From: a bacterium
Lineage (GTDB): Bacteria; Patescibacteriota; Patescibacteriia; JBAXGH01
Assembly: GCA_037139515.1 (NCBI GenBank)
Contig: JBAXGH010000002.1
Location: forward strand, 17,727 to 81,726
Length of the DNA stretch: 64,000 bases
Direction: 5' to 3'
The stretch's first letter is position 1; every line of letters begins with the position of its first letter. This document shows, in pieces, positions 34,217 through 61,413 of this stretch. The notes beneath the pieces are model-generated. The model ran no database searches. It was not told where the DNA came from and saw only the letters and a program-made list of their open reading frames with translations. The translations under genes were made by a program, and so were the position numbers.

Positions 34217-34225
34217 AAAAATATA

Positions 34226-34292
34226 GAGATTAGAGGTTAGAGCTTAGGGCTTAGAGATATCACTAATCTCTAAACTCTAAGCTCTAAGCCCT
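34226..34292. repeat. Palindromic TTAGAGCTTAGAG-family repeat, copy 1 of 3
   Basis: AGAGATTAGAGGTTAGAGCTTAGGG...CCCTAAGCTCTAA forms a hairpin. Its 25-nt core is identical to the copy at 41971-42005. Confidence 0.6.
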
Positions 34293-34373
34293 TGCGATTC
34301 AGTAGTATACAAAAAAATTTCGATTCAAACAATCGTCGGCCGGAATGTTTCCCCTTCCTTCGCCTCGTGCCCC

Positions 34374-34479
34374 TGGTGACTGTCCCCTTGGTGACAGTCA
34401 CCTACTGTGGATATCATTTTTGACTTCGCTTATTCTGCACGATTAATTAAGAGTGACTGTCCCTTTAGTGACAGTCACC
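34374..34479. promoter_or_regulatory. Two direct copies of a palindrome GTGACTGTC-N8-GACAGTCAC in the parA upstream region (candidate operator or centromere-like sites)
   Basis: GGTGACTGTCCCCTTGGTGACAGTCACC at 34374-34401 and AGTGACTGTCCCTTTAGTGACAGTCACC at 34452-34479. Near-identical flanks. Confidence 0.4.
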
Positions 34480-34531
34480 CCCTGTGTATAACAAAGTTAG
34501 TACCCTCACAATCGTCGCTCATAAAAAAATC

Positions 34532-41965: not shown

Positions 41966-42010
41966 TGGGGGTTAGAGCTTAGAGATTAGAGGTTAGAGCT
42001 TAGGGAAACA
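41966..42010. repeat. TTAGAGCTTAGAG-family repeat, copy 2 (overlaps the scpB 3' end)
   Basis: GTTAGAGCTTAGAGATTAGAGGTTAGAGCTTAGGGAAACATTTTT. The reverse complement of the copy at 56745-56783 carries the same AAAATGTTTCCCTAAGCTCTAA module. Confidence 0.6.
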
Positions 42011-42594
42011 TTTTTCGGGCCTTCATTTTCGGGTACGGCTTTCAGTTCGCTCAGCGCTCTTTCCAAATCCGGATGATGACGCAGCGTTTCGTATTCCGGC
42101 AAAGTCGCGACCCCGGTCACGCCCAAGTGCCCAAGGAATGCATGCGTCACCTGATAGGTCAGTTCCCCGTTCGCATTTTGAATCTCTTCAATCAGCCCAC
42201 GTACAAGCAGGTTTCGAATGATGAGCGCGCAGTTCACGCCGCGGATTTGTTCCATTTCCGGCTTCGTGACCGGACCTCGATAGCTTATGACGGCAAGTGT
42301 TTCGAGCGCCGGTCGCGTGAGTTCCCCGTGTTCATCGGCGCGCAAAAACTTTTTTACCACTTCCGCTGATTCCGGCGCCGTACCGAGCGACAGCTTATCA
42401 GCGTGCAAAATCAATCTTAAACCGGAATTTTCTTGATTATATTTCTTTTCGATTTCGATAATCGCTGCGTTCACCGCGTCTATTTCAGCACCCAAAATTC
42501 TCACTAACTCAAAAGGCGAAACCGGTTTAACGGCGACAAATAAGATCGATTCGATTTGAGATGAGAGAGACATACCCGGTTCGTCATCCTGCAT
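41986..42594 (-). CDS. scpB: Segregation and condensation protein B
   Basis: Tandem winged-helix ScpB pattern (ILFVAVKPVSPFEL...PLETLAVISYRGPVTKPEMEQIRGVN). Confidence 0.8.
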   Translation of the reverse strand: MQDDEPGMSLSSQIESILFVAVKPVSPFELVRILGAEIDAVNAAIIEIEKKYNQENSGLRLILHADKLSLGTAPESAEVVKKFLRADEHGELTRPALETLAVISYRGPVTKPEMEQIRGVNCALIIRNLLVRGLIEEIQNANGELTYQVTHAFLGHLGVTGVATLPEYETLRHHPDLERALSELKAVPENEGPKNVSLSSNL

Positions 42595-46276: not shown

Positions 46277-47005
46277 CTATATCACAGGCTTGCTTCCCTC
46301 TTCAAATTCCGCGCCGTTTCCGGGAATATATTTCGGATGATAGATAAACACATCAAACCAAGCACGATAAAGCGCCGCTATTTCACGCACATACCGCATG
46401 AAATCGCCTTGATAGTCGCGCAGCGAAGCCGAAACGCCGACCGAATCGATGCCTGATTTTTCGCATAACCAAAGCGAACGATAAAGATGATAAGTCTGCG
46501 TCACAATGATAGCCTCATCGACTTTCCAAACCCGCTTCAAACGCAGACAGCTGTCATAAGTGCGGCGCCCGGCATAGTCGCGCAGAATCGCCGACTCCGG
46601 CACGCCGTTTGCGACAAGATATTTCGCCATCGCGACCGGTTCATTATAATCAACCGTACTATTATCGCCGGACACGATAATCTTTTTGATTTTATTATCT
46701 TTGTACAGTTTTACGGCTACATCCAAACGATCAGCGAGCATATCCGAAGGTTCGCCGCTCCGGTTGAGTCCAGCACCAAGTACGAGCGCATATTCGCGAG
46801 CCGAAACCGCACTTTTATCAACTATCCTGTCACGCGAAAAAATCACGATAAAAATCGGTGTAATCAGAAAAGCAACGAATAAACCGGCCGCGACGATTGC
46901 TAAGGCTATAATTTTATTGCTGATTTTTTCAAACATATAAAAATCATGACATAAAAAGACCGGTCTTTCAACCGGTTTCGCGAACCTTACGCATGATGAG
47001 TTCAT
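46277..47005 (-). CDS. SanA/YdcF-like DUF218 membrane protein
   Basis: N-terminal TM. LVLGAGLNRSGEPSDMLADRLDVAVKLY...IIVSGDN DUF218 pattern. Confidence 0.65.
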   Translation of the reverse strand: MNSSCVRFAKPVERPVFLCHDFYMFEKISNKIIALAIVAAGLFVAFLITPIFIVIFSRDRIVDKSAVSAREYALVLGAGLNRSGEPSDMLADRLDVAVKLYKDNKIKKIIVSGDNSTVDYNEPVAMAKYLVANGVPESAILRDYAGRRTYDSCLRLKRVWKVDEAIIVTQTYHLYRSLWLCEKSGIDSVGVSASLRDYQGDFMRYVREIAALYRAWFDVFIYHPKYIPGNGAEFEEGSKPVI

Positions 47006-47483
47006 CCGGACAGAATGACCGCTTCATGACGCGGACGCGCTTGAACCCGCACTTCTCGTAGCAGCGAATCGCCCGAGTATTCAGCGTAAAAACGCCAAGC
47101 TCGAGCTCGAACTCGTCTGGGAACATGCGGAAAAACCAATCGCAGGCCTTCAGGGTAGCGATCGTGCCGACGCCACGTCCCCAGAAATCCTTGTCGTGAA
47201 TCGCGATGTATATTTCGTAACGCCTGTGATGCGGCTTCAACTGGACGACGATGTGCCCAGCGATTTCCCCATCAACCAGAATCACAAAATCATGCATCTT
47301 CGGATTCGTGAGATGCTCCTCGAGCTTCGCAAAAACCTCCTGACTTGTGAGCTGAAATTGCCGCTCGGTTGTGAGCCTCATGATTTCCGGATCATTCCAG
47401 GCCGGAATGAACGCAGAGAAGTCCGCGCGCCGAAGCTTCCGAAGCCTCACTCGGCTCGGTTTTACTCTCTCACCTTTTTCCAT
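46968..47483 (-). CDS. GNAT family N-acetyltransferase
   Basis: HDKDFWGRGVGTIATLKACDWFF acetyl-CoA binding motif. Confidence 0.7.
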   Translation of the reverse strand: MEKGERVKPSRVRLRKLRRADFSAFIPAWNDPEIMRLTTERQFQLTSQEVFAKLEEHLTNPKMHDFVILVDGEIAGHIVVQLKPHHRRYEIYIAIHDKDFWGRGVGTIATLKACDWFFRMFPDEFELELGVFTLNTRAIRCYEKCGFKRVRVMKRSFCPDELIMRKVRETG

Positions 47484-47497
47484 ATCTCCTCCGTGGG

Positions 47498-48097
47498 TTA
47501 AAGTACTTCGTGGGAATCGCCGAGGGCGAATACCGCCTGACCGTCAGCGATTGCGATAACAGGATAATCTACCTGTTGCGAGAATTCATCAACCTCGGCC
47601 GCAAGACTTGGCTTGAAATGCGGAAAAACCGCGATGTTGGTGAAACCAAAACCGGTTAAATCTTCAAGCGCGATTTCGTTTTCGTCGCCTTCGGAACCAA
47701 AGCCGGCGAGTTCAATCGACCCGCTCGCGAGAATACTGCCGGCGCTCACGCCGATATACAAAGCTCCAGCTTTCACACGAGCCTGGATTTTTTCAACCCA
47801 ACCATGTTCGCGGAGCGCCGCGAGAATCGAAAAAGTATTTCCGCCGCAAACGAAAATCAGGCCGGCATCATCGAGCGCCGCGGCGCCGTTACCATTCGAG
47901 AGATTCACAATTGCAGTGTTGGTGATCCCCGCTTCCGCTAGCTGGTCTTCAATCAAAGCAAGCCAAGGGATTGACTCCGGCGTCACTCCGGAAGTAACAA
48001 TCGCCGCCCGACAGGTCTTCGGATCCGCGATAGATTTTTTGACCGCAGCAATAAGCGCTGGTTTATCGAGTCCCGATGATGTGAGAAGAAGTTTCAT
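47498..48097 (-). CDS. Peptidase S51 family (dipeptidase E-like)
   Basis: GLIFVCGGNTFSILAALREHGW...LYIGVSAGSILA (catalytic Ser in GxSAG). Confidence 0.7.
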   Translation of the reverse strand: MKLLLTSSGLDKPALIAAVKKSIADPKTCRAAIVTSGVTPESIPWLALIEDQLAEAGITNTAIVNLSNGNGAAALDDAGLIFVCGGNTFSILAALREHGWVEKIQARVKAGALYIGVSAGSILASGSIELAGFGSEGDENEIALEDLTGFGFTNIAVFPHFKPSLAAEVDEFSQQVDYPVIAIADGQAVFALGDSHEVL

Positions 48098-50156: not shown

Positions 50157-50609
50157 ATGATCACGAAAACAAACTTCATTTTCGGAGTTTACGAGCGCCG
50201 ACTTCCAAGTCACGAATTGCCAGAAGAGGTAAAAAAAGAAATCGATCGCCTCGCGTCAACACCACTGATTTGGCCAAAAACAGAGCACATTGGCCCATGC
50301 GGCTGGAAAAAAGACCTGAAGAGCGAATGCCACTATCCACCATGCGATGACGACCGACTAGAGATTCTGCAAAAGACCCATCACTTTCCACACAAAAATC
50401 ATCTCGGCGGAAAAGTTCCGTTTGTCTATCGAATTCAGGACGAAATCACGCGAGATCGAAAAACCGGAGAGATCCTTGAAAGAAGTATCGGCAATGTAAC
50501 GGTGAATTATGCTCCGCATAGCGATACAATGTGCCCAATCTGTGGAGCGGATTACGGAATTGAGAGCGAAAACAAATGGGGATCTTGTTGGCGCTGTTAC
50601 GCAAACTGA
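50157..50609 (+). CDS. Hypothetical Cys-rich protein (150 aa)
   Basis: GAGGAGG RBS. C-terminal MCPICGADY...WGSCWRCYAN zinc-ribbon-like motif. Confidence 0.5.
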   Translation: MITKTNFIFGVYERRLPSHELPEEVKKEIDRLASTPLIWPKTEHIGPCGWKKDLKSECHYPPCDDDRLEILQKTHHFPHKNHLGGKVPFVYRIQDEITRDRKTGEILERSIGNVTVNYAPHSDTMCPICGADYGIESENKWGSCWRCYAN

Positions 50610-50738: not shown

Positions 50739-51779
50739 ATGTCAGTGACTGAACATAGCCATACAGAAATAAATCAAGGCGCTTTAATGGAATCATCAAA
50801 TCTCGAAAAAGAATACTTTGAAAAATCCCGTGAAACTCTTCGCTATGGGATCATGGAATTATCAAGAACTCTAGACGAAATCCTCAACCGAGACCACGAG
50901 CTACCAACCGCGATCATTTTTCCAGAAACAACTTCACGCCCACTTAGGTATGCAATTGAACCAATCATCGAGCACGTCTACCGAAAAGCGGGCCAAGCAA
51001 AGCCAAAGGAATATTTCTTCAAAACTTTCTCCGCGCATCACGAAGATGATGATTTTCGTGAACTTGCAAAAACCACCTCAGCAGAATTCTCTAAATACGA
51101 AGCCGAGCGCAACAAGTTAGAGGCTATTAGAAAACAAGAGCTCAAGCGCGTGAGCTCGTTGAACCTAGACAAAAATGCAAGCAAACGCCACAGCGACAAT
51201 CTTCAGGATCTTCAAGAAAGCATAAATGTTTTGACGACCAAAATCGGTAAAATGCGAAACGAATGGAGTGAGTTAGAAAAAATTGGCGCTACAGGCAAGA
51301 TACATAACGAACGCATGAAGGAAATACTACAGCGCACCAAGACAGGTTCGCTACTTATTGTTGACGACGTTTTTATCAGAGGAAGAACGTTTAATACTAT
51401 TCGATCTAGCTTAATCGATAATGCCGCGGAAAAACGAGCAAATTATTTTGCCTTTCTTGGCACCGCACATACTTTTGACGAATCATATTTATCGCCAGAT
51501 CAGCTTTCGATAGGAGTTTTACTTGGCGAACCAAAGCACCACATGGATCGAGTCGGCAAAAAGATTCCCTGGAAAGATTATTCGGAAGCATGGTTAATGA
51601 TGCAGAACCTAGGTTTTCCATTTCGTTATAACAAAGAAGCCTCAACCGGCGTCATTAAGAATCAAGCTTCAACCTCGCGATATGTTGAAATTTCCAAGGA
51701 AGCTGATCCAAAAAAAATGCGTGAAGTACGCGAACAATACCGAAAATTAGGCGAAACGGCAGCCGCGAAACTCAAATAA
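50739..51779 (+). CDS. Hypothetical protein with coiled-coil N-terminal half and PRTase-like motif
   Basis: LLIVDDVFIRGRTFNTIRS resembles the phosphoribosyltransferase PRPP-binding loop. -10-like TGATATAAT sits upstream. Confidence 0.45.
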   Translation: MSVTEHSHTEINQGALMESSNLEKEYFEKSRETLRYGIMELSRTLDEILNRDHELPTAIIFPETTSRPLRYAIEPIIEHVYRKAGQAKPKEYFFKTFSAHHEDDDFRELAKTTSAEFSKYEAERNKLEAIRKQELKRVSSLNLDKNASKRHSDNLQDLQESINVLTTKIGKMRNEWSELEKIGATGKIHNERMKEILQRTKTGSLLIVDDVFIRGRTFNTIRSSLIDNAAEKRANYFAFLGTAHTFDESYLSPDQLSIGVLLGEPKHHMDRVGKKIPWKDYSEAWLMMQNLGFPFRYNKEASTGVIKNQASTSRYVEISKEADPKKMREVREQYRKLGETAAAKLK

Positions 51780-52479
51780 AAATACTCGGGTAGGCAATCT
51801 CCAATCGAAATTGAAAATGCTCCGCAAGTGCATGAGAAAACTCCGCGAGTTCGCGCCCATTCCAGTTTCCTGTATACGGTTTGCCTAAAAATCCGCGCAA
51901 CGAATCGCTCGCCGACGTGCCGCGGCTCTTAGCACAGGTTTCGCAGAAAAAAGTTCCGGCCATCGGTACAAATCTCGCCGTACCGGTGAAATTTTTGTGA
52001 CAGGCACTGCATTTTTCAAGTGAGCCGTTATAGCCAAGCTCACCGAGCAGTGACCAATAAAAATGAATCTCGCGCGCAAACAAAGCCGTCGTCGTATCTG
52101 ATTGATGCGCCGCAATATCAAATAATAATTTCTTGAGCATTTCAAAAATCTCGCCCTCACCTTCTTCCTCGCGCATAATCCGGGCGATGGTTTTTCGCGC
52201 CGCATCCGCAAGCAGTCGCGCTTCAAGAGTCGCGATCCGCAAAGGTTCGACCATCTCGGCCGAAGCCAAAATATAACCGGCGCGCCCGCGAACCAGCATG
52301 ATATCGACGACGCCGAACCCCTCAACGTGAGGTCGAACTTTAGCCTTAGGCTTAGATGCCCCGCGAGCCCGAGCGCGTATCAGGCCATGTTCCAAAGTAA
52401 GCAAAGTATACAAACGATCGTGCTCCTCATAAGGAACACGATCAAGGACAATGGCAGTAACGCGTTCTGTCTGCGCCAT
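51772..52479 (-). CDS. recO: DNA repair protein RecO
   Basis: N-terminal OB fold (TERVTAIVLDRVPYEEHDRLYTLLT). C-terminal Cys4 zinc finger (CSACHKNF...CETC). Confidence 0.75.
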   Translation of the reverse strand: MAQTERVTAIVLDRVPYEEHDRLYTLLTLEHGLIRARARGASKPKAKVRPHVEGFGVVDIMLVRGRAGYILASAEMVEPLRIATLEARLLADAARKTIARIMREEEGEGEIFEMLKKLLFDIAAHQSDTTTALFAREIHFYWSLLGELGYNGSLEKCSACHKNFTGTARFVPMAGTFFCETCAKSRGTSASDSLRGFLGKPYTGNWNGRELAEFSHALAEHFQFRLEIAYPSIFI

Positions 52480-52622
52480 GTGTGTGTTTTTTCTTTTTCC
52501 CTCTCAACCGGAAGCGCCGAAAAAGTAGTACAGCTTCTGAATGAATCACTTGCCGCCGGGCTATGCGCCCCCCTCTAGCCCGCCGGCAAGTGATTCTTCG
52601 AAGCTGTGCTATGTGCCCATCC

Positions 52623-53045
52623 CTATGCTTCCGCCTCTTCCCCTTCTTCATTATCGAATTCGCCATCGCCAGATGAAAAATATTCATCGAGTATCATAGC
52701 TGCCGCAACCGCATCAGTGTCCCCGCCGGAAATGCGCGTCACACCCGCCGCCGCCTTGGTTGTAAGATATTCATCAACCGTTGCGACCGGAACTTCAACC
52801 CGCGATTTCAAATCTTTTACGAATTCTTCCACCTTCTTGGACTGCATGGTTTCCTCGCCGTTCTCGTTCAGTGGCAAACCGACGATTACCTTCGTGATAT
52901 CTTCCATCTCAATCAAATCCAGCAACTCGCCGATCAAATCTTCGCCCGTCGAAGTGAGCGTATCCATCGGAGTTGCGATTTTCGTAACCGTGTCGCCGAG
53001 CGCTAGACCAGTACGTTTCCCGCCGTAATCAATTCCAAGAATCAT
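52623..53045 (-). CDS. ruvX: Holliday junction resolvase-like YqgF/RuvX
   Basis: MILGIDYGGKRTGLALGD N-terminus. Confidence 0.85.
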   Translation of the reverse strand: MILGIDYGGKRTGLALGDTVTKIATPMDTLTSTGEDLIGELLDLIEMEDITKVIVGLPLNENGEETMQSKKVEEFVKDLKSRVEVPVATVDEYLTTKAAAGVTRISGGDTDAVAAAMILDEYFSSGDGEFDNEEGEEAEA

Positions 53046-53157
53046 ATGAAAGAAAGAAATTTAGAGCTTCGCGGGAGCTACAAAAAACGTCCCCCTGAAA
53101 CAGTTCGAAAGATAGCAGATTATTAGAAACAAGCAAGCCTGTGGATAGGTCTATACC

Positions 53158-53934
53158 TTATACCACAAAAGGTGTCAAAAGTTCGTATCCGTCGTCCGTG
53201 ACTACGATTGTAACCTCAAAATGCGCAGAAGGCGTGCCGTCGCGAGATACCACCGTCCAGCCATCGTCCAAATGATCGACGCGCGAATCACCGCCCATGA
53301 TAATCATGGGCTCGATGGCAATTGTCATGCCAGTTTCAAGCTTTCCCTTCGCACCCGGTTCATCATAATTCGGAATACTCGGGGCCTCGTGCAAATCATT
53401 TCCAACGCCGTGCCCGACATAATCGCGCACGATTCCGTAACCGAACGGTTTTAGATTTTCCTGAATAGCTTTGCCGATGGCGCGCACCGAAGCTCCGTTT
53501 TTGATTTGAGCTAAACCGACGCGCAGAGCTTCGTAGGTTCGCGACATCAAAAGCTGTTTTTCGCGCGAAACTTTTCCGCATGGAACCGTGACCGCCATGT
53601 CAGTCGCCATGCCTTCAAACCAGGCACCGATATCAAGCCCGACGATATCGCCTTCCTCAAGCACAATTTCGCGATTCCCGGGACCATGAATTACTTCTTC
53701 GTTCACCGAAACACAAACCGTCGACGGAAAACCGGCTTGATGCGCCACTTGGGTATAGTTCAAAAACGAAGGCATAGCGCCGAGCGAGCGCATCTTGGCT
53801 TCCGCTGCCGCATCAACCTCCTTAAGCGTCGCCCCGGGCTTCACAGCGCGAACAGCGGCACGCAAAGACTCGGCGAGGATGGCCCCACCGTGCTTCATGG
53901 CTGTGATTTCTTTCGTGGTTTTGATTTTCCCCAT
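53158..53934 (-). CDS. map: Methionine aminopeptidase type I
   Basis: DYVGHGVGNDLHEAPSIPNY and metal ligands. Confidence 0.9.
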   Translation of the reverse strand: MGKIKTTKEITAMKHGGAILAESLRAAVRAVKPGATLKEVDAAAEAKMRSLGAMPSFLNYTQVAHQAGFPSTVCVSVNEEVIHGPGNREIVLEEGDIVGLDIGAWFEGMATDMAVTVPCGKVSREKQLLMSRTYEALRVGLAQIKNGASVRAIGKAIQENLKPFGYGIVRDYVGHGVGNDLHEAPSIPNYDEPGAKGKLETGMTIAIEPMIIMGGDSRVDHLDDGWTVVSRDGTPSAHFEVTIVVTDDGYELLTPFVV

Positions 53935-53963
53935 AATGTTTTCCTGCGGCCTACGGCCTTTTT

Positions 53964-54644
53964 CTATTCCCGAGCCTTCTCGATTCCGCAGCTCCGTTTA
54001 AGTTCAAGCACGATTGCTTCGTGCACCTCAACGATAGGCTGCTCGCCGTTTACACGAGCCACAATACCCTGTTTCTGGTAATAGTCAATAATCGGTTCAG
54101 TCTCTTTGTGATAGGTCTGTAAACGATCGCGAATCGCATCCGGTTCGTCATCTTTTCGCTTCGTTAAAGCAGCGCCGTCTTTATCACAAATTCCCGCCGT
54201 AGCCGGAGGCAGTGAAACCTCGTTATAATTTTTTCCGCACTTCGAACAAACCAAGCGACGCGAAAGTCGGTTCACCGATTCGATGTCGGAAATATCAATC
54301 GCAACGAGAGCATCAACATGCGCGATTTCATCAAGCGCTTCGGCCTGAATCAGATCGCGCGGATAGCCATCTAAAATAATACCGTCGGCGTGCTCCGGTT
54401 GCTTCAACTGCGCGGCGATAATTGCATTTGTAATATCCTGATTAACTAGCTTCCCGGAATCAACATCAGCGGCAATCTTTTTGCCGAGCTCAGTTCCGGC
54501 TTTGATTTCCGCACGCAAAAGCGAGCCGATGGAAACGCTCGGAATTCCGAAGTGATCGGTCAGATACTCGGCCTGAGTTCCCTTTCCGGCGCCCTGGGGA
54601 CCAAGCAGAACCATGATGATTTGTTTCATACTTATTTTAGACAA
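53964..54644 (-). CDS. adk: Adenylate kinase with zinc-binding LID
   Basis: LLGPQGAGKGTQA P-loop. LID CSKCGKNYN...C.D. The true start is probably the internal MKQIIM. Confidence 0.85.
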   Translation of the reverse strand: MSKISMKQIIMVLLGPQGAGKGTQAEYLTDHFGIPSVSIGSLLRAEIKAGTELGKKIAADVDSGKLVNQDITNAIIAAQLKQPEHADGIILDGYPRDLIQAEALDEIAHVDALVAIDISDIESVNRLSRRLVCSKCGKNYNEVSLPPATAGICDKDGAALTKRKDDEPDAIRDRLQTYHKETEPIIDYYQKQGIVARVNGEQPIVEVHEAIVLELKRSCGIEKARE

Positions 54645-54675
54645 AATAAAAAAGTGACCTGTACTTGTATCACAT

Positions 54676-55497
54676 CTAGAACAATACCGCGAGCACCGTG
54701 CAGACAGTAATCCCCAGCATCAAAAATGGCAGCGCCGGAAGAGGATGTTGCTTTTTTCCGGATAAAAACGTCGCAACCAGCACCAGAAAACCGGCCAGAG
54801 TTCCAACTATCACCGCGGCCGCCAAATTGGTGGTCGGCGCTGTTGCAACCAGAATCGCCGGCAACGCGATATCTCCACCACCCAGAAAAACAGCCGAGGA
54901 GCCGGGTTCGAATCTGGCTACATGCTCGAAGTTCGCCGTGAGCCTATGCGGCATTACAAATACCACCGGCAAGTGCTTGCTAATAACAGTCTTAGCCATC
55001 GCGACCATGTGATGTGTGATATTAACCGCCACAATATCGTAAACCGCAAGAATCGCGAGCAGTCCAAAAGCCACCGGGAAAGAAATCATCGATCCGAATT
55101 GCGCGGCGACCCCGGCGAGCGCGAGCGCCAAAACCAAGTTTTGAGAAAAAACCCGTGGCGAGAAAAATAGCAGACTGGCGGCGAGCGGAATCATCATGAA
55201 AGCCGCCGGCAATGGCCAAATCATCGAAAACAGCGAGAAGGTTCCGTAAATCAAAGCAAAATAAACCAACCCCGAGTACACCCGAATGAAAGCCTTCACT
55301 TTTGCGAGCAATAACACGAACAGCGTAGCAAGCGCGAAAGCCGAAAGCGCCACAAGTCCAGCATAAGCCTCGCGACCGTCAGCCACCGGAATCAAATGCC
55401 CGCGAGTCGCGAAAACGAAAAGCGCCGTGGTCAAAAACCACCCGGCAGTTTGAGTATAAAACGAGACACCGATAGAAACAGCCTCCTCCCGAGTCAT
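54676..55497 (-). CDS. Presenilin/signal-peptide-peptidase-like GxGD intramembrane aspartyl protease (A22-like)
   Basis: Polytopic protein with LAVYDIVAV (YD), FLGGGDIALP (GxGD) and HPLPALPF (PAL) in the canonical order and spacing. Confidence 0.5.
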   Translation of the reverse strand: MTREEAVSIGVSFYTQTAGWFLTTALFVFATRGHLIPVADGREAYAGLVALSAFALATLFVLLLAKVKAFIRVYSGLVYFALIYGTFSLFSMIWPLPAAFMMIPLAASLLFFSPRVFSQNLVLALALAGVAAQFGSMISFPVAFGLLAILAVYDIVAVNITHHMVAMAKTVISKHLPVVFVMPHRLTANFEHVARFEPGSSAVFLGGGDIALPAILVATAPTTNLAAAVIVGTLAGFLVLVATFLSGKKQHPLPALPFLMLGITVCTVLAVLF

Positions 55498-55504
55498 GAC
55501 ACCA

Positions 55505-55921
55505 TTATATCAAACCACGGAAACGCCGACGCTCTATCTTCAAAATCCGCTCGTGGAACTCATCAAATTTTTTATAAACTTGGTCAGTAATCATCTCAGA
55601 GGCTCGATATCGTTCATCAATCACATCAAATCGATGTTCGAACTCATCGAATCTTTGATCAATATCACGAAACCGCTCGTCGTTTTGGTCGAAGCGCCGG
55701 TCATGCTCCGCGAGCTTTGCGTGAACTTTCACAAACTCACCATCGTGCTCCTCCAGTTTCTTGAATATCAAAGCATGCTCCACGTCGTTTTTATCAAAAC
55801 GCTCGTGCATGTGCGAGAAGCCCTGTTCCATCAGACTTGCCAAATCATCAACCTTGCTACCAAGATTGTTTAAATTATAAGCCAAGCCTTCGATCTTAAC
55901 CGCCACGTCTTCAATTTTCAT
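55505..55921 (-). CDS. Coiled-coil protein with RFD/ERFD repeats (hypothetical)
   Basis: AAGGAGGG RBS before MKIEDV. Repeats HERFDKND, DRRFDQNDERFRDIDQRFDEFEHRFDVIDERYR. Confidence 0.45.
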   Translation of the reverse strand: MKIEDVAVKIEGLAYNLNNLGSKVDDLASLMEQGFSHMHERFDKNDVEHALIFKKLEEHDGEFVKVHAKLAEHDRRFDQNDERFRDIDQRFDEFEHRFDVIDERYRASEMITDQVYKKFDEFHERILKIERRRFRGLI

Positions 55922-56068
55922 TTTTCCCTCCTTCATATTTATGATTATGGGAATATATTTTTCCCTCGGTCAAGAGTCACATTTGCGAGCGTTTTCAAAA
56001 TCGTGTGGATAAAAAATGACGCGATGCTGACTTGCAACACCACGCCGCCTAAACACCATCATTACTCG

Positions 56069-56575
56069 CTACGGAGACTTCACTGGAGCTGATTTCGAGT
56101 CGTACGCAATGATTCTCAGAGTCATGCCGAGCGTGAGCCCCATTCCAGCCAGAACATTCCTGATTTCTCGAAGTTTCTTACGGCCAAGGTTTTTGGTTTT
56201 AAGGACTTCAGTCTCAGTCATCACCACGAGTTGATGAACCACTTTGATGTCTCTGTACTCAAGAGCGTTTGTAATGCCAATCGAGAGCTCAGTATCCTTA
56301 ATGCTCCTAAAGAGCAGATCACCCAATTGAACTCCTGGTTTGACGCAGAAAATTTCGGCCAATGGCCCCTCGCCCTCAGGAAACTCGAACTGAACGTTGG
56401 GAAGCTCGGTGGACGAACCAAGCCGGTTCTCCATGAACAACTGGTTCGCGCGAATCAACTGCTTCACCATCCAGATTTCACGCTCGCTCCGGCTCACATG
56501 CATCAGGTTTGTGGCCTGAAGCAAAGCGAGTTCCGCGAACATCGATGTGACTTCTTTGCTGAGATTCACCGCCAT
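56069..56575 (-). CDS. Free-standing protein with an RNA polymerase alpha-subunit C-terminal domain (alpha-CTD, HhH)-like domain
   Basis: C-terminal 60 aa TELSIGITNALE...TETEVLKTKNLGRKKLREIRNVLAGMGLTLGM align with bacterial RpoA alpha-CTD (ELTVRSANCLK...[32 protein letters not shown]). The N-terminal 100 aa are unrelated to alpha-NTD. Start chosen at MAVNL with GAGGAGAGGG RBS. Confidence 0.6.
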   Translation of the reverse strand: MAVNLSKEVTSMFAELALLQATNLMHVSRSEREIWMVKQLIRANQLFMENRLGSSTELPNVQFEFPEGEGPLAEIFCVKPGVQLGDLLFRSIKDTELSIGITNALEYRDIKVVHQLVVMTETEVLKTKNLGRKKLREIRNVLAGMGLTLGMTLRIIAYDSKSAPVKSP

Positions 56576-56744
56576 AGCCCTCTCCTCTCTTCGTATAAAC
56601 ACTCACATGTTTCGGCGACCTGCACGCCGATCGTATCCGCCCACCCGGGGCGAAACTTCCGCTAATATCAACATGTTTAACGACGCTTGTCAACTGCACG
56701 CCTATAACAAAACCGCCCGAAAGGCGGCTTTGTGTTTTGTTCGA

Positions 56745-56783
56745 AAATGTTTCCCTAAGCTCTAATCTCTAAGCTCTAGACCT
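56745..56783. repeat. TTAGAGCTTAGAG-family repeat, copy 3 (abuts and overlaps the secY stop)
   Basis: AAAATGTTTCCCTAAGCTCTAATCTCTAAGCTCTAGACC. Confidence 0.6.
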
Positions 56784-58068
56784 TAGAGTATGAATCGTAT
56801 TCCGCGGTCTTGAGCTGAGACTCAACCTGTTTCACCGTTTCGATAATCACCGAGACGACGATAAGGAAGCTCGTACCACCAACCGCGATTTGCGTTGAGT
56901 TGGAATATTGCTGCAAGACGTGAGGCAAGACAGCGATAACGGCGAGGAACAAGCCGCCAGCGAGCAAGATTCGGCTCGTCACCTGCGAGATGTATTCCGC
57001 GGTCGGTTTACCCGGGCGAATGCCAGGAATAAACGCTGACTGCTTCTGCAGATTCTCGGCGATTTTTTCCGGCTGGAAAACAATCGAGGTGTAGAAGAAC
57101 GTGAAGAAGAAAACCAGCAAGAAGTACGCGACCGAATAGAAGATCTGGTTATTGAAGATGCTTACAACCCAGTGCGCGATATCCGAAAGCCAAATCGAGC
57201 GCACATTAAAGAAGAAGCGCGCAATCATCGGCGGGAAAAGCATGACCGAAATCGCAAAGATGATCGGGATGACCCCGGCCATGTTCACACGAAGCGGAAG
57301 ATGGTTCGAGAATCCCGGAACGCTTGAATACTGCGTCGCCTGGCGGGCATGCGCGATCGGAATATTGCGCTGAGCTTCGTTAATCATGACAACTCCGACG
57401 ACCATGAGAAGCGCGATCGCGACGAAAAGAATCGCCGTGAAGAGCTGCGAGCGGTCAAAGGTCACGAGGAACTGCGTGAGCGAAACCGGCATGCTCGCAA
57501 TGATACCAGCGAAGATAATAAGCGACATTCCGTTACCAATCTTCTTCTCCGAAATCAGTTCACCGAGCCACATCAGGAATACCGTTCCGGCCGTCATCGT
57601 GGTCATCGCGAGCACCATTTCTAGTGGTGTGCTCAAGACCTCTCCGCGAGCCGCAAGCGGCCCAGAAGACTTGAGAAGTGCAATCAAACCATAGGACTGC
57701 AGAAGCGAAAGCGGAATCGTGAGCCAACGCGTCCAACGGTTGATTTTCTGCTTGCCGAATTCCCCTTCCTTCTGAAGCTCATCAAGCGCCGGGAAAATCA
57801 TGCCCAAGAGCTGGAAGATAATCGAAGCTGTGATGTACGGAGCAACGCCAAGCGCGACCACGGAAAATTGCGCAATCGTGCCACCGCTGAAGATATTCAA
57901 AAGACCAAGAACCTGGTTCTGTTCAAAAAACTGACGCAAAACCGTGGCGTCAACTCCAGGAATCGGAATATGCGCGATTACCCGGAAGAACGCGAGCACT
58001 CCGACGACAAACAAAACACTCTTCCGCAGTTCCGGAATATTCCAGATTCGCTTAAGGGTATCAATCAT
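56776..58068 (-). CDS. secY: Preprotein translocase subunit SecY
   Basis: 10-TM SecY pattern. GGTSFLIVVSVIIETVKQ C-terminus. Confidence 0.9.
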   Translation of the reverse strand: MIDTLKRIWNIPELRKSVLFVVGVLAFFRVIAHIPIPGVDATVLRQFFEQNQVLGLLNIFSGGTIAQFSVVALGVAPYITASIIFQLLGMIFPALDELQKEGEFGKQKINRWTRWLTIPLSLLQSYGLIALLKSSGPLAARGEVLSTPLEMVLAMTTMTAGTVFLMWLGELISEKKIGNGMSLIIFAGIIASMPVSLTQFLVTFDRSQLFTAILFVAIALLMVVGVVMINEAQRNIPIAHARQATQYSSVPGFSNHLPLRVNMAGVIPIIFAISVMLFPPMIARFFFNVRSIWLSDIAHWVVSIFNNQIFYSVAYFLLVFFFTFFYTSIVFQPEKIAENLQKQSAFIPGIRPGKPTAEYISQVTSRILLAGGLFLAVIAVLPHVLQQYSNSTQIAVGGTSFLIVVSVIIETVKQVESQLKTAEYDSYSKV

Positions 58069-58096
58069 ACGGAATTTAGCTTTAGCAAATAGCTAA

Positions 58097-58281
58097 GAAC
58101 CTGTTTAGAATCTCATGCTTAGGCGAAAGACTCAAATTTCGAGGCGGAAATCGCTCAGCCTGAGGAGGAATATCTAGATATGCTGACGATGGATGGGCGA
58201 TTTGCGACCGAAATTTGAGTCTTTCGACAAGCAAACAGCTCATTTGAGCATATCGTGCTGTGGTGAGATTCTGAACAGGTT
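58097..58281. repeat. ~185 bp nested palindromic (MITE-like) element filling the rplO-secY spacer
   Basis: Outer arms AGAACCTGTTTAGAATCTCA and TGAGATTCTGAACAGGTTCT (19/20). Inner arms GAAAGACTCAAATTTCG and CGAAATTTGAGTCTTTC (17/17) separated by 66 nt. Confidence 0.55.
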
Positions 58282-58289
58282 CTGACAGC

Positions 58290-58760
58290 CTATTTGTGCT
58301 TGTGAACCTTTTTCGGTTTGATAGCAGCAACCGAACCGCCGGCTTTTTCAATCAAAGCCTTGGCGCTCGGAGAGCATTTGATATCAAAGACGTGAAGCGG
58401 CACATTAATCGAACCGGTCGAGACGATTTTTGCGGTTCGCTGCGACTTGTTCAAGAATTTCTTCTCGTGCAGAGCTTCAAGGTTTACCTTGCATTCCTTC
58501 GGGAAAGCTTCCACGAGTGCGGTCAAGGTAATTGTAACATCTTTCGTGTACTGGCTCGTGAAACCACGCGCCTTTGGCATCGAAAGCATGAGAGCACGCA
58601 TACCTTTCAACCGAAGACCGGACACACCCGAACGGGCGGCCTGACCTTTGGTACCACGACCGGAGGTTTTACCCATACCGGAACCGTGACCACGACCGAT
58701 GATGAACGGGCGCTTCGCAGAACCCTTCGCCGGTTTTAGATTGTTGAGTGAGAGTGCCAT
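58290..58760 (-). CDS. rplO: 50S ribosomal protein L15
   Basis: GRGHGSGMGKTSGRGTKGQ. Confidence 0.9.
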   Translation of the reverse strand: MALSLNNLKPAKGSAKRPFIIGRGHGSGMGKTSGRGTKGQAARSGVSGLRLKGMRALMLSMPKARGFTSQYTKDVTITLTALVEAFPKECKVNLEALHEKKFLNKSQRTAKIVSTGSINVPLHVFDIKCSPSAKALIEKAGGSVAAIKPKKVHKHK

Positions 58761-58764
58761 AAGT

Positions 58765-59349
58765 TTATACGGTTACCGGCAATTTCTTGGCTTCCAATTC
58801 CTTTGCCTTTTTGTGATCGACGCGCTCCTGAGCCTTCTTGGAATATCGTTCAAGATATTTGATGGCGAGGAAAGCGGCGCGAACGTTGTTGATTTTGTTG
58901 CTGGCGCCAAGCATCTTTCCGGTGACGTTCGGGACTCCTGCGAGTTCCAAGACGACACGGAGCGGACCGCCGGCTTTGATACCGTTACCGCGGGAAGCTG
59001 GCTTAAGCATCAAGACCGCTGAACCAAACTTCATGGTGACTTCGTGAGGAATCGTTTCATCAACGATCGGCACCTGAATCACGTTCTTTTTGGCCTTCGT
59101 GAAAGCCTTCTGAATCGCGAGCTGGACGTCCAGGCCCTTCGCGACGGCGTAACCGACGCGACCCTTGCGGTCTCCAATCACAAGACAGGTGCGGAAGCGC
59201 ATACGCTTACCACCGGCTGTGACACGGGTAACGCGGGCGAGTTCCAAAATCTTTTGGTCAAACTCTTCCTTCGGACGCTCATCGCGTCCACCTTCGCGGC
59301 GTCCACCGCCACCTTTTCCACCACGGCTGTTGTTTTGAGAAAATGCCAT
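58765..59349 (-). CDS. rpsE: 30S ribosomal protein S5 (N-terminal Gly/Arg extension)
   Basis: VTRVTAGGKRMRFRTCLVIGDRKGRVGYAVAKG. Confidence 0.9.
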   Translation of the reverse strand: MAFSQNNSRGGKGGGGRREGGRDERPKEEFDQKILELARVTRVTAGGKRMRFRTCLVIGDRKGRVGYAVAKGLDVQLAIQKAFTKAKKNVIQVPIVDETIPHEVTMKFGSAVLMLKPASRGNGIKAGGPLRVVLELAGVPNVTGKMLGASNKINNVRAAFLAIKYLERYSKKAQERVDHKKAKELEAKKLPVTV

Positions 59350-59353
59350 AGGT

Positions 59354-59710
59354 TTAGAATTCTAGTCCGTTTTCACGCGCACCCTCGGCGAGTGCTTTGA
59401 CACGTCCGTGATAGGCACGACCTCCGCGGTCAAAAACGACCTTGGTGATACCGGCGGCCTTTGCAACCTTCGCGAGTTCGACTCCAACTTCCTTTGCGAC
59501 GCCAACCTTTCCGCCTTCCTTCGTCTTCTTGACCTTGAGGTCCGAAGCTGCGGCCAAAGTCTTACCAGAATCATCATCGATGAGCTGGGCGTAGACGTGC
59601 AAAAGAGTTCGACGCACCGAAAGACGCGGGCGAGCACTCGTACCAAAAACGCGAGCACGAATGCGTGCCTTTCGACGAGCCATGATGCGTTGTTTATTTT
59701 TTGGTGTCAT
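59354..59710 (-). CDS. rplR: 50S ribosomal protein L18
   Basis: [28 protein letters not shown]. Confidence 0.9.
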
Positions 59711-59715
59711 ATGGT

Positions 59716-60276
59716 TTAGGAGGCGGCCTTCGTGGCGGCTTTACCGGCCTTTCGGCGAACTTGTTCATCGATGTATCGGATACCTGTGCCCTTATAAGGT
59801 TCCGAAACCTTGAAACGTCGGATGCGGGCGGCGGTCTCTCCAACGAGCTGTTTGCCGATGCCCACGATTGTGATGATGTTCTTATCAACTGTGATCGTAA
59901 CGCCATCCGGAATCTCGAAGTTGATATCGTGTGAGAAACCGATTTCGAGTTTCAGGATTTTGCCCGTGACATTGACTTTGAAACCAATGCCGTTCACTTC
60001 GAGCTGTTCCTTATACCCTTCCGTCACACCCTTTACCATGTTCGTCGCGAGCGCCCGGGAAAGTCCCCAGAGCGAGCGGTCGTCACGGTTTTCTTCATCT
60101 TTGACGGTGAAGTTAATCACCTTTCCGCTTTCCGAAGTCTCAATCTTGCACATAACGTGAGGATGGATCTTCTCGGAGAGAGTTCCCTTCGGACCTTTGA
60201 CAGTGAGCGTAGGACTCGTGAAAGTCACCTCGACGCCGGCCGGAACCACTACTGGTTTTTTTCCAATACGCGACAT
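59716..60276 (-). CDS. rplF: 50S ribosomal protein L6
   Basis: [18 protein letters not shown]. Confidence 0.9.
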
Positions 60277-60286
60277 AGAGTTTTAG

Positions 60287-60679
60287 TTAGAAGATTTCAC
60301 AAATTACCTCACCGCCAAGGCGACGCTTGCGCGCTTCCTTGTTGGTCATAACGCCGCTAGGGGTCGAAATCACGGCAACGCCGAGACCGGAAAGCACGCG
60401 AGGAAGCTCATCGGCTTTCACGTACATACGATGACCCGGAGTTGAAACTCGCTTGATGTTTCTAATCTTAGGACCGTCAGATTCGTATTTGATGCCAATC
60501 GAAAGCTTCAAGAATTTGCCATCTTCAAGCTTTTTGACTTCACCGACGAAGCCTTCACCTCCGAGTACTTTTGCGACTGCGAATTTGAGATTCGAGTATG
60601 GCAAAACCACTTCGGCGTGACCTGCAGCCGAGGCATTACGAATCCGTGTGAGCATGTCTGAAATTGGATCGGTAATCAT
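60287..60679 (-). CDS. rpsH: 30S ribosomal protein S8
   Basis: MITDPISDMLTRIRNA. Confidence 0.9.
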   Translation of the reverse strand: MITDPISDMLTRIRNASAAGHAEVVLPYSNLKFAVAKVLGGEGFVGEVKKLEDGKFLKLSIGIKYESDGPKIRNIKRVSTPGHRMYVKADELPRVLSGLGVAVISTPSGVMTNKEARKRRLGGEVICEIF

Positions 60680-60685
60680 AATGGT

Positions 60686-60871
60686 TTACCAGCTTGATTT
60701 TGTAATACCCGGAATCTCACCGCGGTTGGCGAGTTCTCGGAAACAAATGCGACAGAGGTCGAAGTCCCGCATGAAACCTCGAGTACGACCACAGCGCCAA
60801 CAGATGCGTGTGATGCGAGTCGAGAACTTAGGCTTTTTGTGCGCTTTCGCGACGCGTGCTTTAGTAGACAT
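60686..60871 (-). CDS. rpsZ: 30S ribosomal protein S14 type Z (zinc-binding)
   Basis: 61 aa. CWRCGRTRGFMRDFDLCRIC. Confidence 0.9.
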   Translation of the reverse strand: MSTKARVAKAHKKPKFSTRITRICWRCGRTRGFMRDFDLCRICFRELANRGEIPGITKSSW

Positions 60872-60876
60872 AGCGG

Positions 60877-61413
60877 TTATTTCTTAAACGGGAATCCGAG
60901 AGCTTTAAAGAGTGCTAATCCGCGCTCTTTAGACTCCGCATTCGTCGCCATCGTTACTTCGAGACCGTGGAGGTTTTCGATTTCATCCGAACCAACCTCC
61001 GGGAAAGCGAGCATTTCTTTGAACCCGATCGACATATTTCCGCGATCATCAACCGACTTCAATGAAAGACCTTGGAAATCTCGGACACGCGGCAAGGTGA
61101 TGTTCACGAGCTTTTCGAGGAAAGCTTCCATGCGACGACCTCGGAGCGTAACCATCATACCGACCACCATGCCTTCGCGAATCTTGAAGTTTGAGATAGA
61201 AGCTTTCGACTTCGTTTTGACCGGCTTCTGACCCGTGATACGTGTGAGCGTGGATTCGACCGCGTCTGTGAACTTGGCGTCCTTCAAACCGCGGGAGAGA
61301 CCGGCGTTCAGCGTCACTTTGAGAATCTTCGGGAGCGCGTTGACATTCTTAAGCTTGAGCTCAGTCATGAGCTCAGCGTTGGCCTTCTTTAATTGTTCTC
61401 GGAACATCGTCAT
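60877..61413 (-). CDS. rplE: 50S ribosomal protein L5
   Basis: Conserved L5 core. Position between S14 and L24. Confidence 0.9.
   Translation of the reverse strand: MTMFREQLKKANAELMTELKLKNVNALPKILKVTLNAGLSRGLKDAKFTDAVESTLTRITGQKPVKTKSKASISNFKIREGMVVGMMVTLRGRRMEAFLEKLVNITLPRVRDFQGLSLKSVDDRGNMSIGFKEMLAFPEVGSDEIENLHGLEVTMATNAESKERGLALFKALGFPFKK

Follow-up and report, generated by a model that had tools for sequence, protein, structure and literature searches.

In bacteria of the Bacillus and Clostridia type, the ribosomal-protein genes of the spc block run in the order L6-L18-S5-L15-secY and continue through adk and map into infA-rpmJ-rpsM-rpsK-rpsD-rpoA. The present analysis deals with the junction between secY and adk in a stretch of 64,000 nucleotides from an uncultured Patescibacteria (Candidate Phyla Radiation, CPR) genome (assembly GCA_037139515.1, contig JBAXGH010000002.1, positions 17,727 to 81,726; the whole stretch is hereafter referred to as the window), in which the backbone L6-L18-S5-L15-secY ... 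adk-map is kept. Unlike the canonical spc continuation, the window has genes between secY and adk and a terminator-like hairpin 3' of secY, and past map it continues with ruvX-recO. Three extra genes are confirmed between secY and adk: a gene for a stand-alone protein with a domain like the C-terminal domain of the RNA polymerase alpha subunit (alpha-CTD), a coiled-coil open reading frame (ORF) and a gene for a protease of the presenilin/signal-peptide peptidase (SPP) type, hereafter referred to as PSH.

Presenilin homologues have been studied mainly in archaea and eukaryotes. The archaeal PSH of Methanoculleus marisnigri (MCMJR1; 4HYC and 4HYG; MEROPS A22), a multi-pass membrane protein of 301 residues, is of the same family as the window PSH, carries its motifs at equivalent positions and is similar in length (273 amino acids in the window); unlike it, the window PSH has a Patescibacteria host and a secY-adk position that is shared by few lineages. 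The alpha-CTD of RpoA (PF03118; 3N4M, 1LB2 and 3K4G) has its fold and the flexible linker ahead of the domain in common with the window protein. In Escherichia coli, R265 of this domain makes a minor-groove contact important for UP-element binding, and the roles of residues such as D259/E261 and T285/E286/E288 are well established in the E. coli literature. Unlike rpoA, the window gene is predicted to be monocistronic and lies beside secY and not in the alpha operon, and its product has an orphan two-helix N-terminus and a glycine (Gly100) at the position of Arg265. Alpha-CTD proteins other than RpoA occur in metagenomes as tandem arrays, fusions and small stand-alone forms, none of which, to our knowledge, has a described function.

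The DNA between secY and adk is probably a composite, made up of a slot between two transcription units, a resident PSH gene and two small genes specific to this genome. Gene content, domain identities, synteny and conserved motifs are observations; the transcription units, the sequence of events and the functions of all three products are proposals built on them. An earlier note on this DNA had read the three genes as a single insertion, possibly a mobile or accessory cassette or a regulatory module riding the spc operon. That reading is partly supported: the three genes are indeed extra to the canonical order and none of them is a known ribosome or translocon factor; related genomes, however, do not carry them as one unit. 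What is new here amounts to further representatives of known domain families, arranged in a gene order specific to the lineage, and the arrangement is mostly ordinary for a clade that has assorted extra genes at this junction.

The secY-adk junction and its predicted transcription signals

On the minus strand of the window the genes are ordered L6, L18, S5, L15, secY, alpha-CTD gene, coiled-coil ORF, PSH, adk, map, ruvX and recO, as established from the ORF listing and Pfam. The secY gene (56776-58068; Pfam SecY, 3e-105) is the end gene of the ribosomal-protein/spc block. The alpha-CTD gene is listed as an ORF at 56069-56602, and its likeliest start, ATG 56575, gives a gene at 56069..56575 for a protein of 168 amino acids (PF03118), the same length as the NCBI protein MEI7741035.1. 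It is followed by the coiled-coil ORF, listed at 55505-55936 (143 amino acids; no family), for which ATG 55921 is the likeliest start (about 138 amino acids), and by PSH (54676-55497, 273 amino acids; PF06550, family A22 of the intramembrane aspartyl proteases). The downstream edge of the slot is adk (53964-54644, probable start ATG 54629; Pfam ADK, 3e-43, along with ADK_lid).

The secY-adk-map order is tight in Lachnospiraceae control loci, with adk about 100 bp past secY and rpoA about 4 kb downstream. Direct succession of secY and adk, taken as the norm in the earlier note, is not the rule in the clade of the window. Among 44 related Patescibacteria loci that hold secY plus adk or map, the distance from secY to adk/map ranges from 6 to 4664 bp (median 622 bp), being at most 160 bp in 16 loci, 160-500 bp in two and more than 500 bp in 26. 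With a gap above 160 bp in 28 of the 44 loci, secY is thus often without adk directly after it in this lineage; the textbook order is not fixed here and the break after secY is a recurrent site of gene gain. The synteny comparison suggested in the earlier note also finds the arrangement of the window not to be universal in the lineage. In the 6 kb downstream, the Patescibacteria loci gave no alpha-CTD match, whereas the Lachnospiraceae loci did.

The ORFs in the gap of the related loci form many unrelated clusters upon protein clustering. They include ABC_tran with a MacB/FtsX permease, DUF475/TerC, Na_Ca_ex, an IS200 Y1_Tnp, PDDEXK_3, PSH-like proteins, a 1150-amino-acid papain-like protein (Peptidase_C1) and an AAA/P-loop kinase-like protein. 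The IS200-type transposase is located at the secY-adk junction of the relative L021, so that mobile DNA does land at this junction.

In Falkowbacteria-like relatives, the slot often holds a basic low-complexity protein of 150-245 amino acids with no Pfam match and with the recurring motifs ..EQIKRNLN.. and ..GFAG.., sometimes placed after a conserved protein of 98 amino acids. Examples are found at L004:7654-8391, L005:7372-7947, L007:4122-4709, L009:7510-8214, L017:8482-9180, L022:7394-7900 and L024:7354-7818, among others. This protein represents an undescribed family at the secY-adk/map junction.

In the GTDB comparison (80 species loci, one genome per species), the best secY matches are to Patescibacteria labelled Falkowbacteria, Uhrbacteria, Kerfeldbacteria etc., with identities of 60% or less. 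Nearer relatives are metagenome contigs only, found through PSH. L083 is 75% identical to the window in secY (a fragment), 67% in PSH and 65% in adk, and has the order secY, a 58-bp spacer with a terminator, PSH, adk and map. L081 (66% identity in secY and 57% in PSH) has the order L15-secY-PSH-adk-map-ruvX-recO with a spacer of 225 bp, and two further contigs, L082 and L087, are both cut inside PSH. No match to the alpha-CTD gene or the coiled-coil ORF was found in L081 and L083 by tblastn at E<=0.01, spacers included. Presence and absence differ by gene in this comparison, PSH being common to all three loci and the other two genes being confined to the window.

Candidate transcription signals, all on the minus strand, separate the genes of the window. 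A terminator-like hairpin after secY (56700..56735) was identified by the terminator scan as GCCGCC-TTTC-GGGCGG followed by TTTTGTTAT, and RNAfold of 56690-56780 gives a 12-pair hairpin. The same stem sequence is present 3' of secY in L083, and alignment of the window spacer with those of L083 and L081 shows this hairpin to be a conserved element. By a crude scan, 39 of 63 related loci have a terminator-like hairpin soon after secY; most of these 39 are loci with a gap. A sigma-70-like promoter candidate precedes the alpha-CTD gene at 56664..56693 (TTGACA, 18 nt, GATATT; 10/12 consensus matches), and a second terminator-like hairpin, a 12-pair stem (hairpin at 56046-56018) followed by ATTTTTTAT, lies after the gene at 56008..56046 (terminator scan, and RNAfold of 55937-56070). 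The coiled-coil ORF has its own promoter candidate at 55944..55973 (TTGACC, 18 nt, CATAAT; 10/12 consensus matches), and AAGGAGG is read in the sequence 5-6 nt ahead of ATG 55921. The idea that the genes simply ride the spc operon is, given the hairpin after secY and the promoter-like sites before the small genes, probably wrong.

PSH is preceded by an extended -10-like element, TGATATAAT (55504..55512), 6 nt before its ATG and with no Shine-Dalgarno sequence. In L083 and L081, TGCTATACT aligns with this box 6-7 nt before the PSH ATG, such that a TG-n-TATA-n-T box 6-8 nt ahead of the ATG is common to the window, L083 and L081; similar boxes are TATCCT in L014 and TATTCT in L151. The spacing of 6-8 nt suggests that the PSH mRNA would be leaderless or have a very short leader. 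The secY terminator and the PSH box adjoin each other in L083 and are about 1.2 kb apart in the window. In the spacer between the PSH stop and the adk ATG (54630-54675), a weak hairpin, GTGAT..10 nt..GTCAC, is followed by TTTTTTATTTT as read from the sequence, the terminator scan being silent here; PSH and adk may thereby be partially uncoupled in transcription.

From these signals and the synteny we infer the following organisation. The ribosomal-protein/secY transcript of this Patescibacteria group would stop at an intrinsic terminator just past secY, and a second unit of the form X-adk-map-ruvX-recO would begin beyond it. The spacer between the two would tolerate gene gain and loss and so come to hold different genes in different lineages; secY ending one unit and the slot starting the next would explain the tolerance of insertions. 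In the lineage of the window, the resident gene X would be PSH with its own conserved -10-like box, and the approximately 1.2 kb with the alpha-CTD gene and the coiled-coil ORF would be an addition of the window lineage only, placed downstream of the secY terminator and ahead of the PSH promoter, the alpha-CTD gene being monocistronic and the coiled-coil ORF reading into PSH.

The proteins encoded at the junction

The labels given to the three genes in the earlier note (an alpha-CTD-like helix-hairpin-helix (HhH) protein, a coiled-coil RFD-repeat protein and a presenilin-like GxGD protease) are borne out by Pfam, by the spacing of the motifs and by GGGD206-209. PSH matches PF06550 with 71.4 bits (cut-off 23.9; E = 1.2e-19) over residues 53-272, has all the catalytic motifs (Y153-D154, G206-G-G-D209 and P254-A-L) and is named "presenilin family intramembrane aspartyl protease" by NCBI. 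A six-sequence PSH alignment shows no variation at the Y, D, G.GD, A and L positions of the motifs, whereas L014 and L040 have Ala in place of the P of PAL. The profile of the six sequences matches 4HYC/4HYG (4HYC_A, E = 1.1e-24, positions 19-270 against chain residues 17-289). Hydropathy gives about seven segments by a crude count; the membrane core of the family has about nine transmembrane (TM) helices. Judged by its profile scores, PSH is a member of family A22 and not an equivalog of the archaeal enzyme.

PSH is found directly upstream of adk in L081, L082, L083, L087, L014, L040 and L151, and L010 has a PSH-like match after secY, before the contig end; the Uhrbacteria-type PSH loci are L014, L040 and L010. 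The adk-linked position was observed in two of 80 metagenome PSH loci (L087 and L151), the other 78 being without it. The window PSH is about 30% identical to most of its metagenomic relatives, and one relative with 34% identity (P0008) has a clearly bacterial but unrelated gene neighbourhood. All six full-length junction PSHs group together in the neighbour-joining tree, which suggests common descent at the secY-adk site.

Members of the PSH/SPP family are candidate signal-peptide peptidases (PMC9263693, PMC8305020). By analogy with them, PSH most likely cleaves the TM remnants or signal peptides left by Sec export, a role that we infer from the function of the family and the lasting linkage to secY and adk/map. 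Its retention beside the translocon gene in several bacterial lineages is a testable hint of such signal-peptide clearance. Some observations weigh against the composite reading where PSH is concerned: the natural substrate of the archaeal PSH/SPP is not established (PMC9263693), the score of PSH against the NCBIfam archaeal equivalog NF041679 (90.4 bits) does not reach the cut-off of 125, and the bootstrap value of a single junction-PSH clade is only 46/100, so that common descent at the site is no more than suggested and independent recruitment of PSH is a possible alternative. A search of the literature library for a link between presenilin and the Candidate Phyla Radiation found none, the Patescibacteria matches being unrelated gut-microbiome or Alzheimer papers.

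The alpha-CTD protein matches PF03118 (RNA_pol_A_CTD) with 49.2 bits (cut-off 23.8; 4e-13) over residues 96-152, and PDB alpha-CTD chains match it at 2e-12. AlphaFold prediction from the single sequence was unusable (pLDDT 39) and an alignment of 36 sequences was used instead. The resulting model has residues 90-150 at pLDDT 95-97 and an N-terminus in which helices 5-27 and 31-52 form a hairpin (pLDDT 63-79), followed by a low-confidence linker of about 30 residues. Foldseek superposes the model on the E. coli alpha-CTD (3N4M_C) at 47% identity and an rmsd of 0.8 A, with a target-normalised TM-score of 0.90. The double helix-hairpin-helix fold of the alpha-CTD (about residues 85-150) is predicted with confidence. 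An exhaustive search of 1.84 billion representatives returned 3039 matches at E<=1e-3, essentially all on residues 83-155; in the same search residues 1-80 have no homologue and this region is an orphan.

Residues matching E. coli D259, E261, T285, E286, E288, N294, G296 and K298 are kept in the window protein, which retains the 261- and 287-determinant residues in the alignment with E. coli, and the second HhH is also kept (NLGRKKL in the window, NLGKKSL in E. coli). The equivalent of Arg265 is, however, replaced by Gly100 (LSIGITNAL vs LTVRSANCL), at a position that is at least 90% conserved in the 36-sequence alignment and where all but one of 64 small homologues keep the arginine. Against the rpoA equivalog models the protein reaches only 24-70 bits, where the cut-offs lie at 228-523, and PF03118 is the sole Pfam domain, the alpha-NTD (RNA_pol_L / RNA_pol_A_bac) being absent. 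By these scores the protein is not RpoA, and it lacks the arginine of UP-element-type binding. The gene might alternatively be the CTD part of a split rpoA; no rpoA, looked for with this idea in mind, is present in the 64-kb window, and the idea is disfavoured by Gly100 and by the absence of the gene from the relatives.

Proteins other than RpoA make wide use of the alpha-CTD module, and the window protein is one more non-RpoA paralogue. Those non-RpoA forms that were checked retain the arginine, and the N-terminal region of the window protein is unalignable to any of them. The window protein resembles stand-alone forms of the P0002 and NCBIfam PRK07758 type in architecture only, with a size and layout like those of P0002 and a C-terminal alpha-CTD. 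P0002 (162 amino acids, from L084) was the only other match in a word-indexed homologue search. The 1.9-kb metagenome contig L084 carries two tandem stand-alone alpha-CTD genes, at 99-599 and 715-1203 (166 and 162 amino acids). Large metagenomic proteins with 3-11 tandem alpha-CTD domains were also observed (P0009-P0016 and P0125), as were fusions to sigma-70 region 4 (P0009, P0016 and P0125) and to a ResIII/helicase core (P0014). Relatives of the window protein were not found in viral contigs, and a search of the same literature library on stand-alone alpha-CTD paralogues gave nothing relevant.

Since it keeps the 261- and 287-determinant residues and the second HhH, the protein would most likely work through protein contacts or weak non-UP DNA binding, as a putative small accessory transcription factor or decoy, and it may pair with the coiled-coil protein. 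Two points stand against such a role: Gly100 could equally be read as the mark of a decaying gene, and the protein is a singleton. Outside RpoA, an alpha-CTD with its fold intact but no Arg265 could show what the remaining surfaces of the domain do alone. As they stand, the PSH and alpha-CTD leads would leave the current understanding unchanged.

The coiled-coil ORF carries RFD/RFR motifs at residues 76, 83, 90 and 97, i.e. with a spacing of seven residues, and 21-nt repeats in its DNA. Its hydrophobic periodicity peaks at 3.5 residues, with clean heptads over about 100 residues, and a crude hydropathy count finds no TM segment or signal peptide. Pfam gives no family and weak coiled-coil-type matches only. 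The PHROGs/PADLOC matches are likewise weak, the best (2.7e-5) being to a phage family without assigned function, and were treated as compositional. An exact-sequence look-up found neither the 138- nor the 143-amino-acid form. The stop codon of the ORF overlaps the -10-like box of PSH, from which gene it is separated by a 7-bp gap. The Shine-Dalgarno sequence, the promoter-like site, the orientation and the clean heptads favour its being a gene. In addition, the NCBI accessions of PSH (MEI7741033.1) and the alpha-CTD protein (MEI7741035.1) leave room for exactly one protein number in between, which presumably belongs to the coiled-coil coding sequence.

Origin of the extra genes

The composite reading, in which two small genes were gained beside a resident PSH, has to be weighed against other accounts of the same DNA. 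That the three genes are one mobile or accessory cassette, inserted as a unit whose left boundary is the secY-stop repeat, is highly improbable. The three are contiguous, on the same strand and all extra with respect to the Lachnospiraceae loci, and the transposase of L021 shows the junction to be open to such elements; but the occurrence of PSH alone before adk in the closest relatives, L081 and L083, largely refutes it. Terminator-like and promoter-like signals also separate the three genes. No significant flanking direct repeats were found (local alignment of the flanks scored 14, against a shuffle mean of 15.1), nor any meaningful inverted or other repeat pair flanking 55505-56700. Barring the weak coiled-coil-type matches, searches of Pfam, NCBIfam, PHROGs and PADLOC found no recombinase, transposase, integrase, phage or defence gene in the insert. 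The composition of the insert is ordinary, within the range of the genome, with GC3 of 0.50-0.60 and codon adaptation index of 0.72-0.76 (window means 0.52+/-0.07 and 0.756+/-0.038). A candidate target-site duplication, TTTTGTTATAGGCGTGC after the secY terminator and TTTGATATAATGGTGTC at the PSH -10/start, was rejected, 224 of 300 shuffles being as good.

The supposed boundary, the TTAGAGCTTAGAG repeat at the secY stop, is real as a repeat, being detected by the tandem-repeat finder TRF at 56755-56778 (period 7, 3.4 copies), but does not mark the insert, since it lies upstream of the conserved terminator and recurs at 34224-34293 and 41966-42014. It is, as judged from its distribution, a genome-specific dispersed repeat of the form TAGAGNT.

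The alpha-CTD and coiled-coil genes could instead be ancestral to the window, L083 and L081 and have been deleted in the relatives, leaving the window with an old lineage-specific module. Gene loss comes easily to the small genomes of this group, the 225-bp spacer of L081 leaves room for a deletion scar and the window shows no sign of an insertion scar. Two independent and precise losses would, however, be needed with L083 as the sister of the window (secY identity 75% vs 66% for L081), the spacers of both relatives lack remnant similarity at the tblastn threshold given above, and in L083 the terminator adjoins the PSH box with nothing in between. Neither the N-terminal region of the alpha-CTD protein nor the coiled-coil ORF has homologues in 1.8-5.8 billion proteins. 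Deletion is considered unlikely, and gain in the window lineage is the simplest reading because loss in both L083 and L081 would be less parsimonious.

The slot might also house a functional Sec-linked module, in which regulation of the downstream operon would fall to the alpha-CTD protein, while PSH and the coiled-coil protein would act at the translocon. Adjacency to secY, the signal-peptide peptidases of the PSH family (PMC9263693, PMC8305020), the membrane proteins among other slot residents (TerC, Na/Ca exchanger and MacB-type permease) and the direct reading of the coiled-coil ORF into PSH are in line with this. Yet the three genes co-occur in this one genome only, the coiled-coil ORF has no predicted membrane or export signal, the alpha-CTD lacks Arg265 and in relatives the slot is also home to a transposase, a nuclease and soluble proteins that are clearly unrelated, which makes such a module rather doubtful. 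A bolder version is held to be about as doubtful, namely that a lineage-wide landing site carries PSH as a signal-peptide peptidase inherited with secY/adk/map, together with an alpha-CTD/coiled-coil modulator (decoy) of RNA polymerase. Somewhat less improbable, though still unlikely, is that the small ORFs are not functional, the coiled-coil being a chance ORF and/or the alpha-CTD gene a decaying duplicate. The coiled-coil ORF has no homologue and its codon log-likelihood does not exceed that of its antisense ORF, and the alpha-CTD protein is a singleton with its critical Arg changed to Gly. The alpha-CTD domain is nevertheless intact in sequence and model, its codon score is gene-like (0.127, vs -0.068 for the antisense ORF), both ORFs have a good Shine-Dalgarno sequence and near-consensus -35 boxes, the heptads of the coiled-coil are clean and the NCBI numbering leaves room for its product.

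The composite reading, which is preferred, also has points against it. The transcription signals are predictions from consensus scans and folding, and shuffled versions of the secY hairpin region fold only moderately less stably than the real one (z = -2.2). The gain is based on parsimony from two relatives without a species tree. For the coiled-coil ORF, the word-indexed protein search and the viral contigs gave no homologues, and codon log-likelihoods of 0.03 for the sense and 0.07 for the antisense ORF leave the coding strand undecided.

Repeats and other features of the window

The heptamer array at the secY stop, together with the 16-mer CTTAGGGAAACATTTT, occupies 56744..56778 on the minus strand as one copy of the dispersed repeat. 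It reads TAGAGCT TAGAGAT TAGAGCT TAG, the first TAG being the stop codon of secY. The sequence TAGAGCTTAG has 6 occurrences in the window, against 0.05 expected. The array at 34224-34293 is a perfect palindrome of two arrays just upstream of parA, and that at 41966-42007 overlaps the stop codon of scpB and is followed by the same 16-mer as the secY-stop array (56751-56778). Two of the arrays thus supply the stop codon of a gene. With a period of 7 and TAG/TAA on opposite strands, three or more copies place stop codons in all six frames. A single TAGAGCT is present at the secY-stop position in L083, and no heptamer array was found in 166 loci from other genomes. Repeated palindromic units, GGTGACTGTCCCC..GGTGACAGTCACC, with a TRF period of 15, are located at 34370-34480 in the approximately 300 bp upstream of parA-parB and may be partition or operator sites.

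Past adk, the genes map (53158-53934; Pfam Peptidase_M24, 3e-44), ruvX (52623-53045) and recO (51772-52479) follow on the minus strand, in the succession also found in related loci. Two plus-strand ORFs without a Pfam family, at 50157-50609 and 50739-51779 (150 and 346 amino acids), lie between recO and a NUDIX gene; they have a lower GC content (0.42-0.46) and no counterpart at that place in L081 or L082. At 46968-48097, genes for a peptidase S51 and a GNAT acetyltransferase stand between a class II aminoacyl-tRNA synthetase and DUF218, which are adjacent, with no S51/GNAT between, in L081 and L082. Such other window-specific small insertions in the same backbone point to ordinary gene flux. 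The minus strand also carries two giant ORFs side by side, at 13820-24046 (3408 amino acids) and 24147-31562 (2471 amino acids).

The 221-nt spacer between L15 (rplO) and secY (58069-58289) is predicted to fold into one very long near-perfect hairpin on the transcript strand, with a folding energy of -83.4 kcal/mol against -45.8+/-4.5 for shuffles (z = -8.4; 0/200 shuffles as good). The window has no second copy of this hairpin and no Rfam family matches it, the Rfam search of 52000-61000 giving nothing but a sub-threshold miRNA match that it caused. The corresponding spacer of L081 is only 65 bp. The predicted hairpin may have arisen as a palindromic (MITE-like) insertion, or it may be an intercistronic element for processing or stability.

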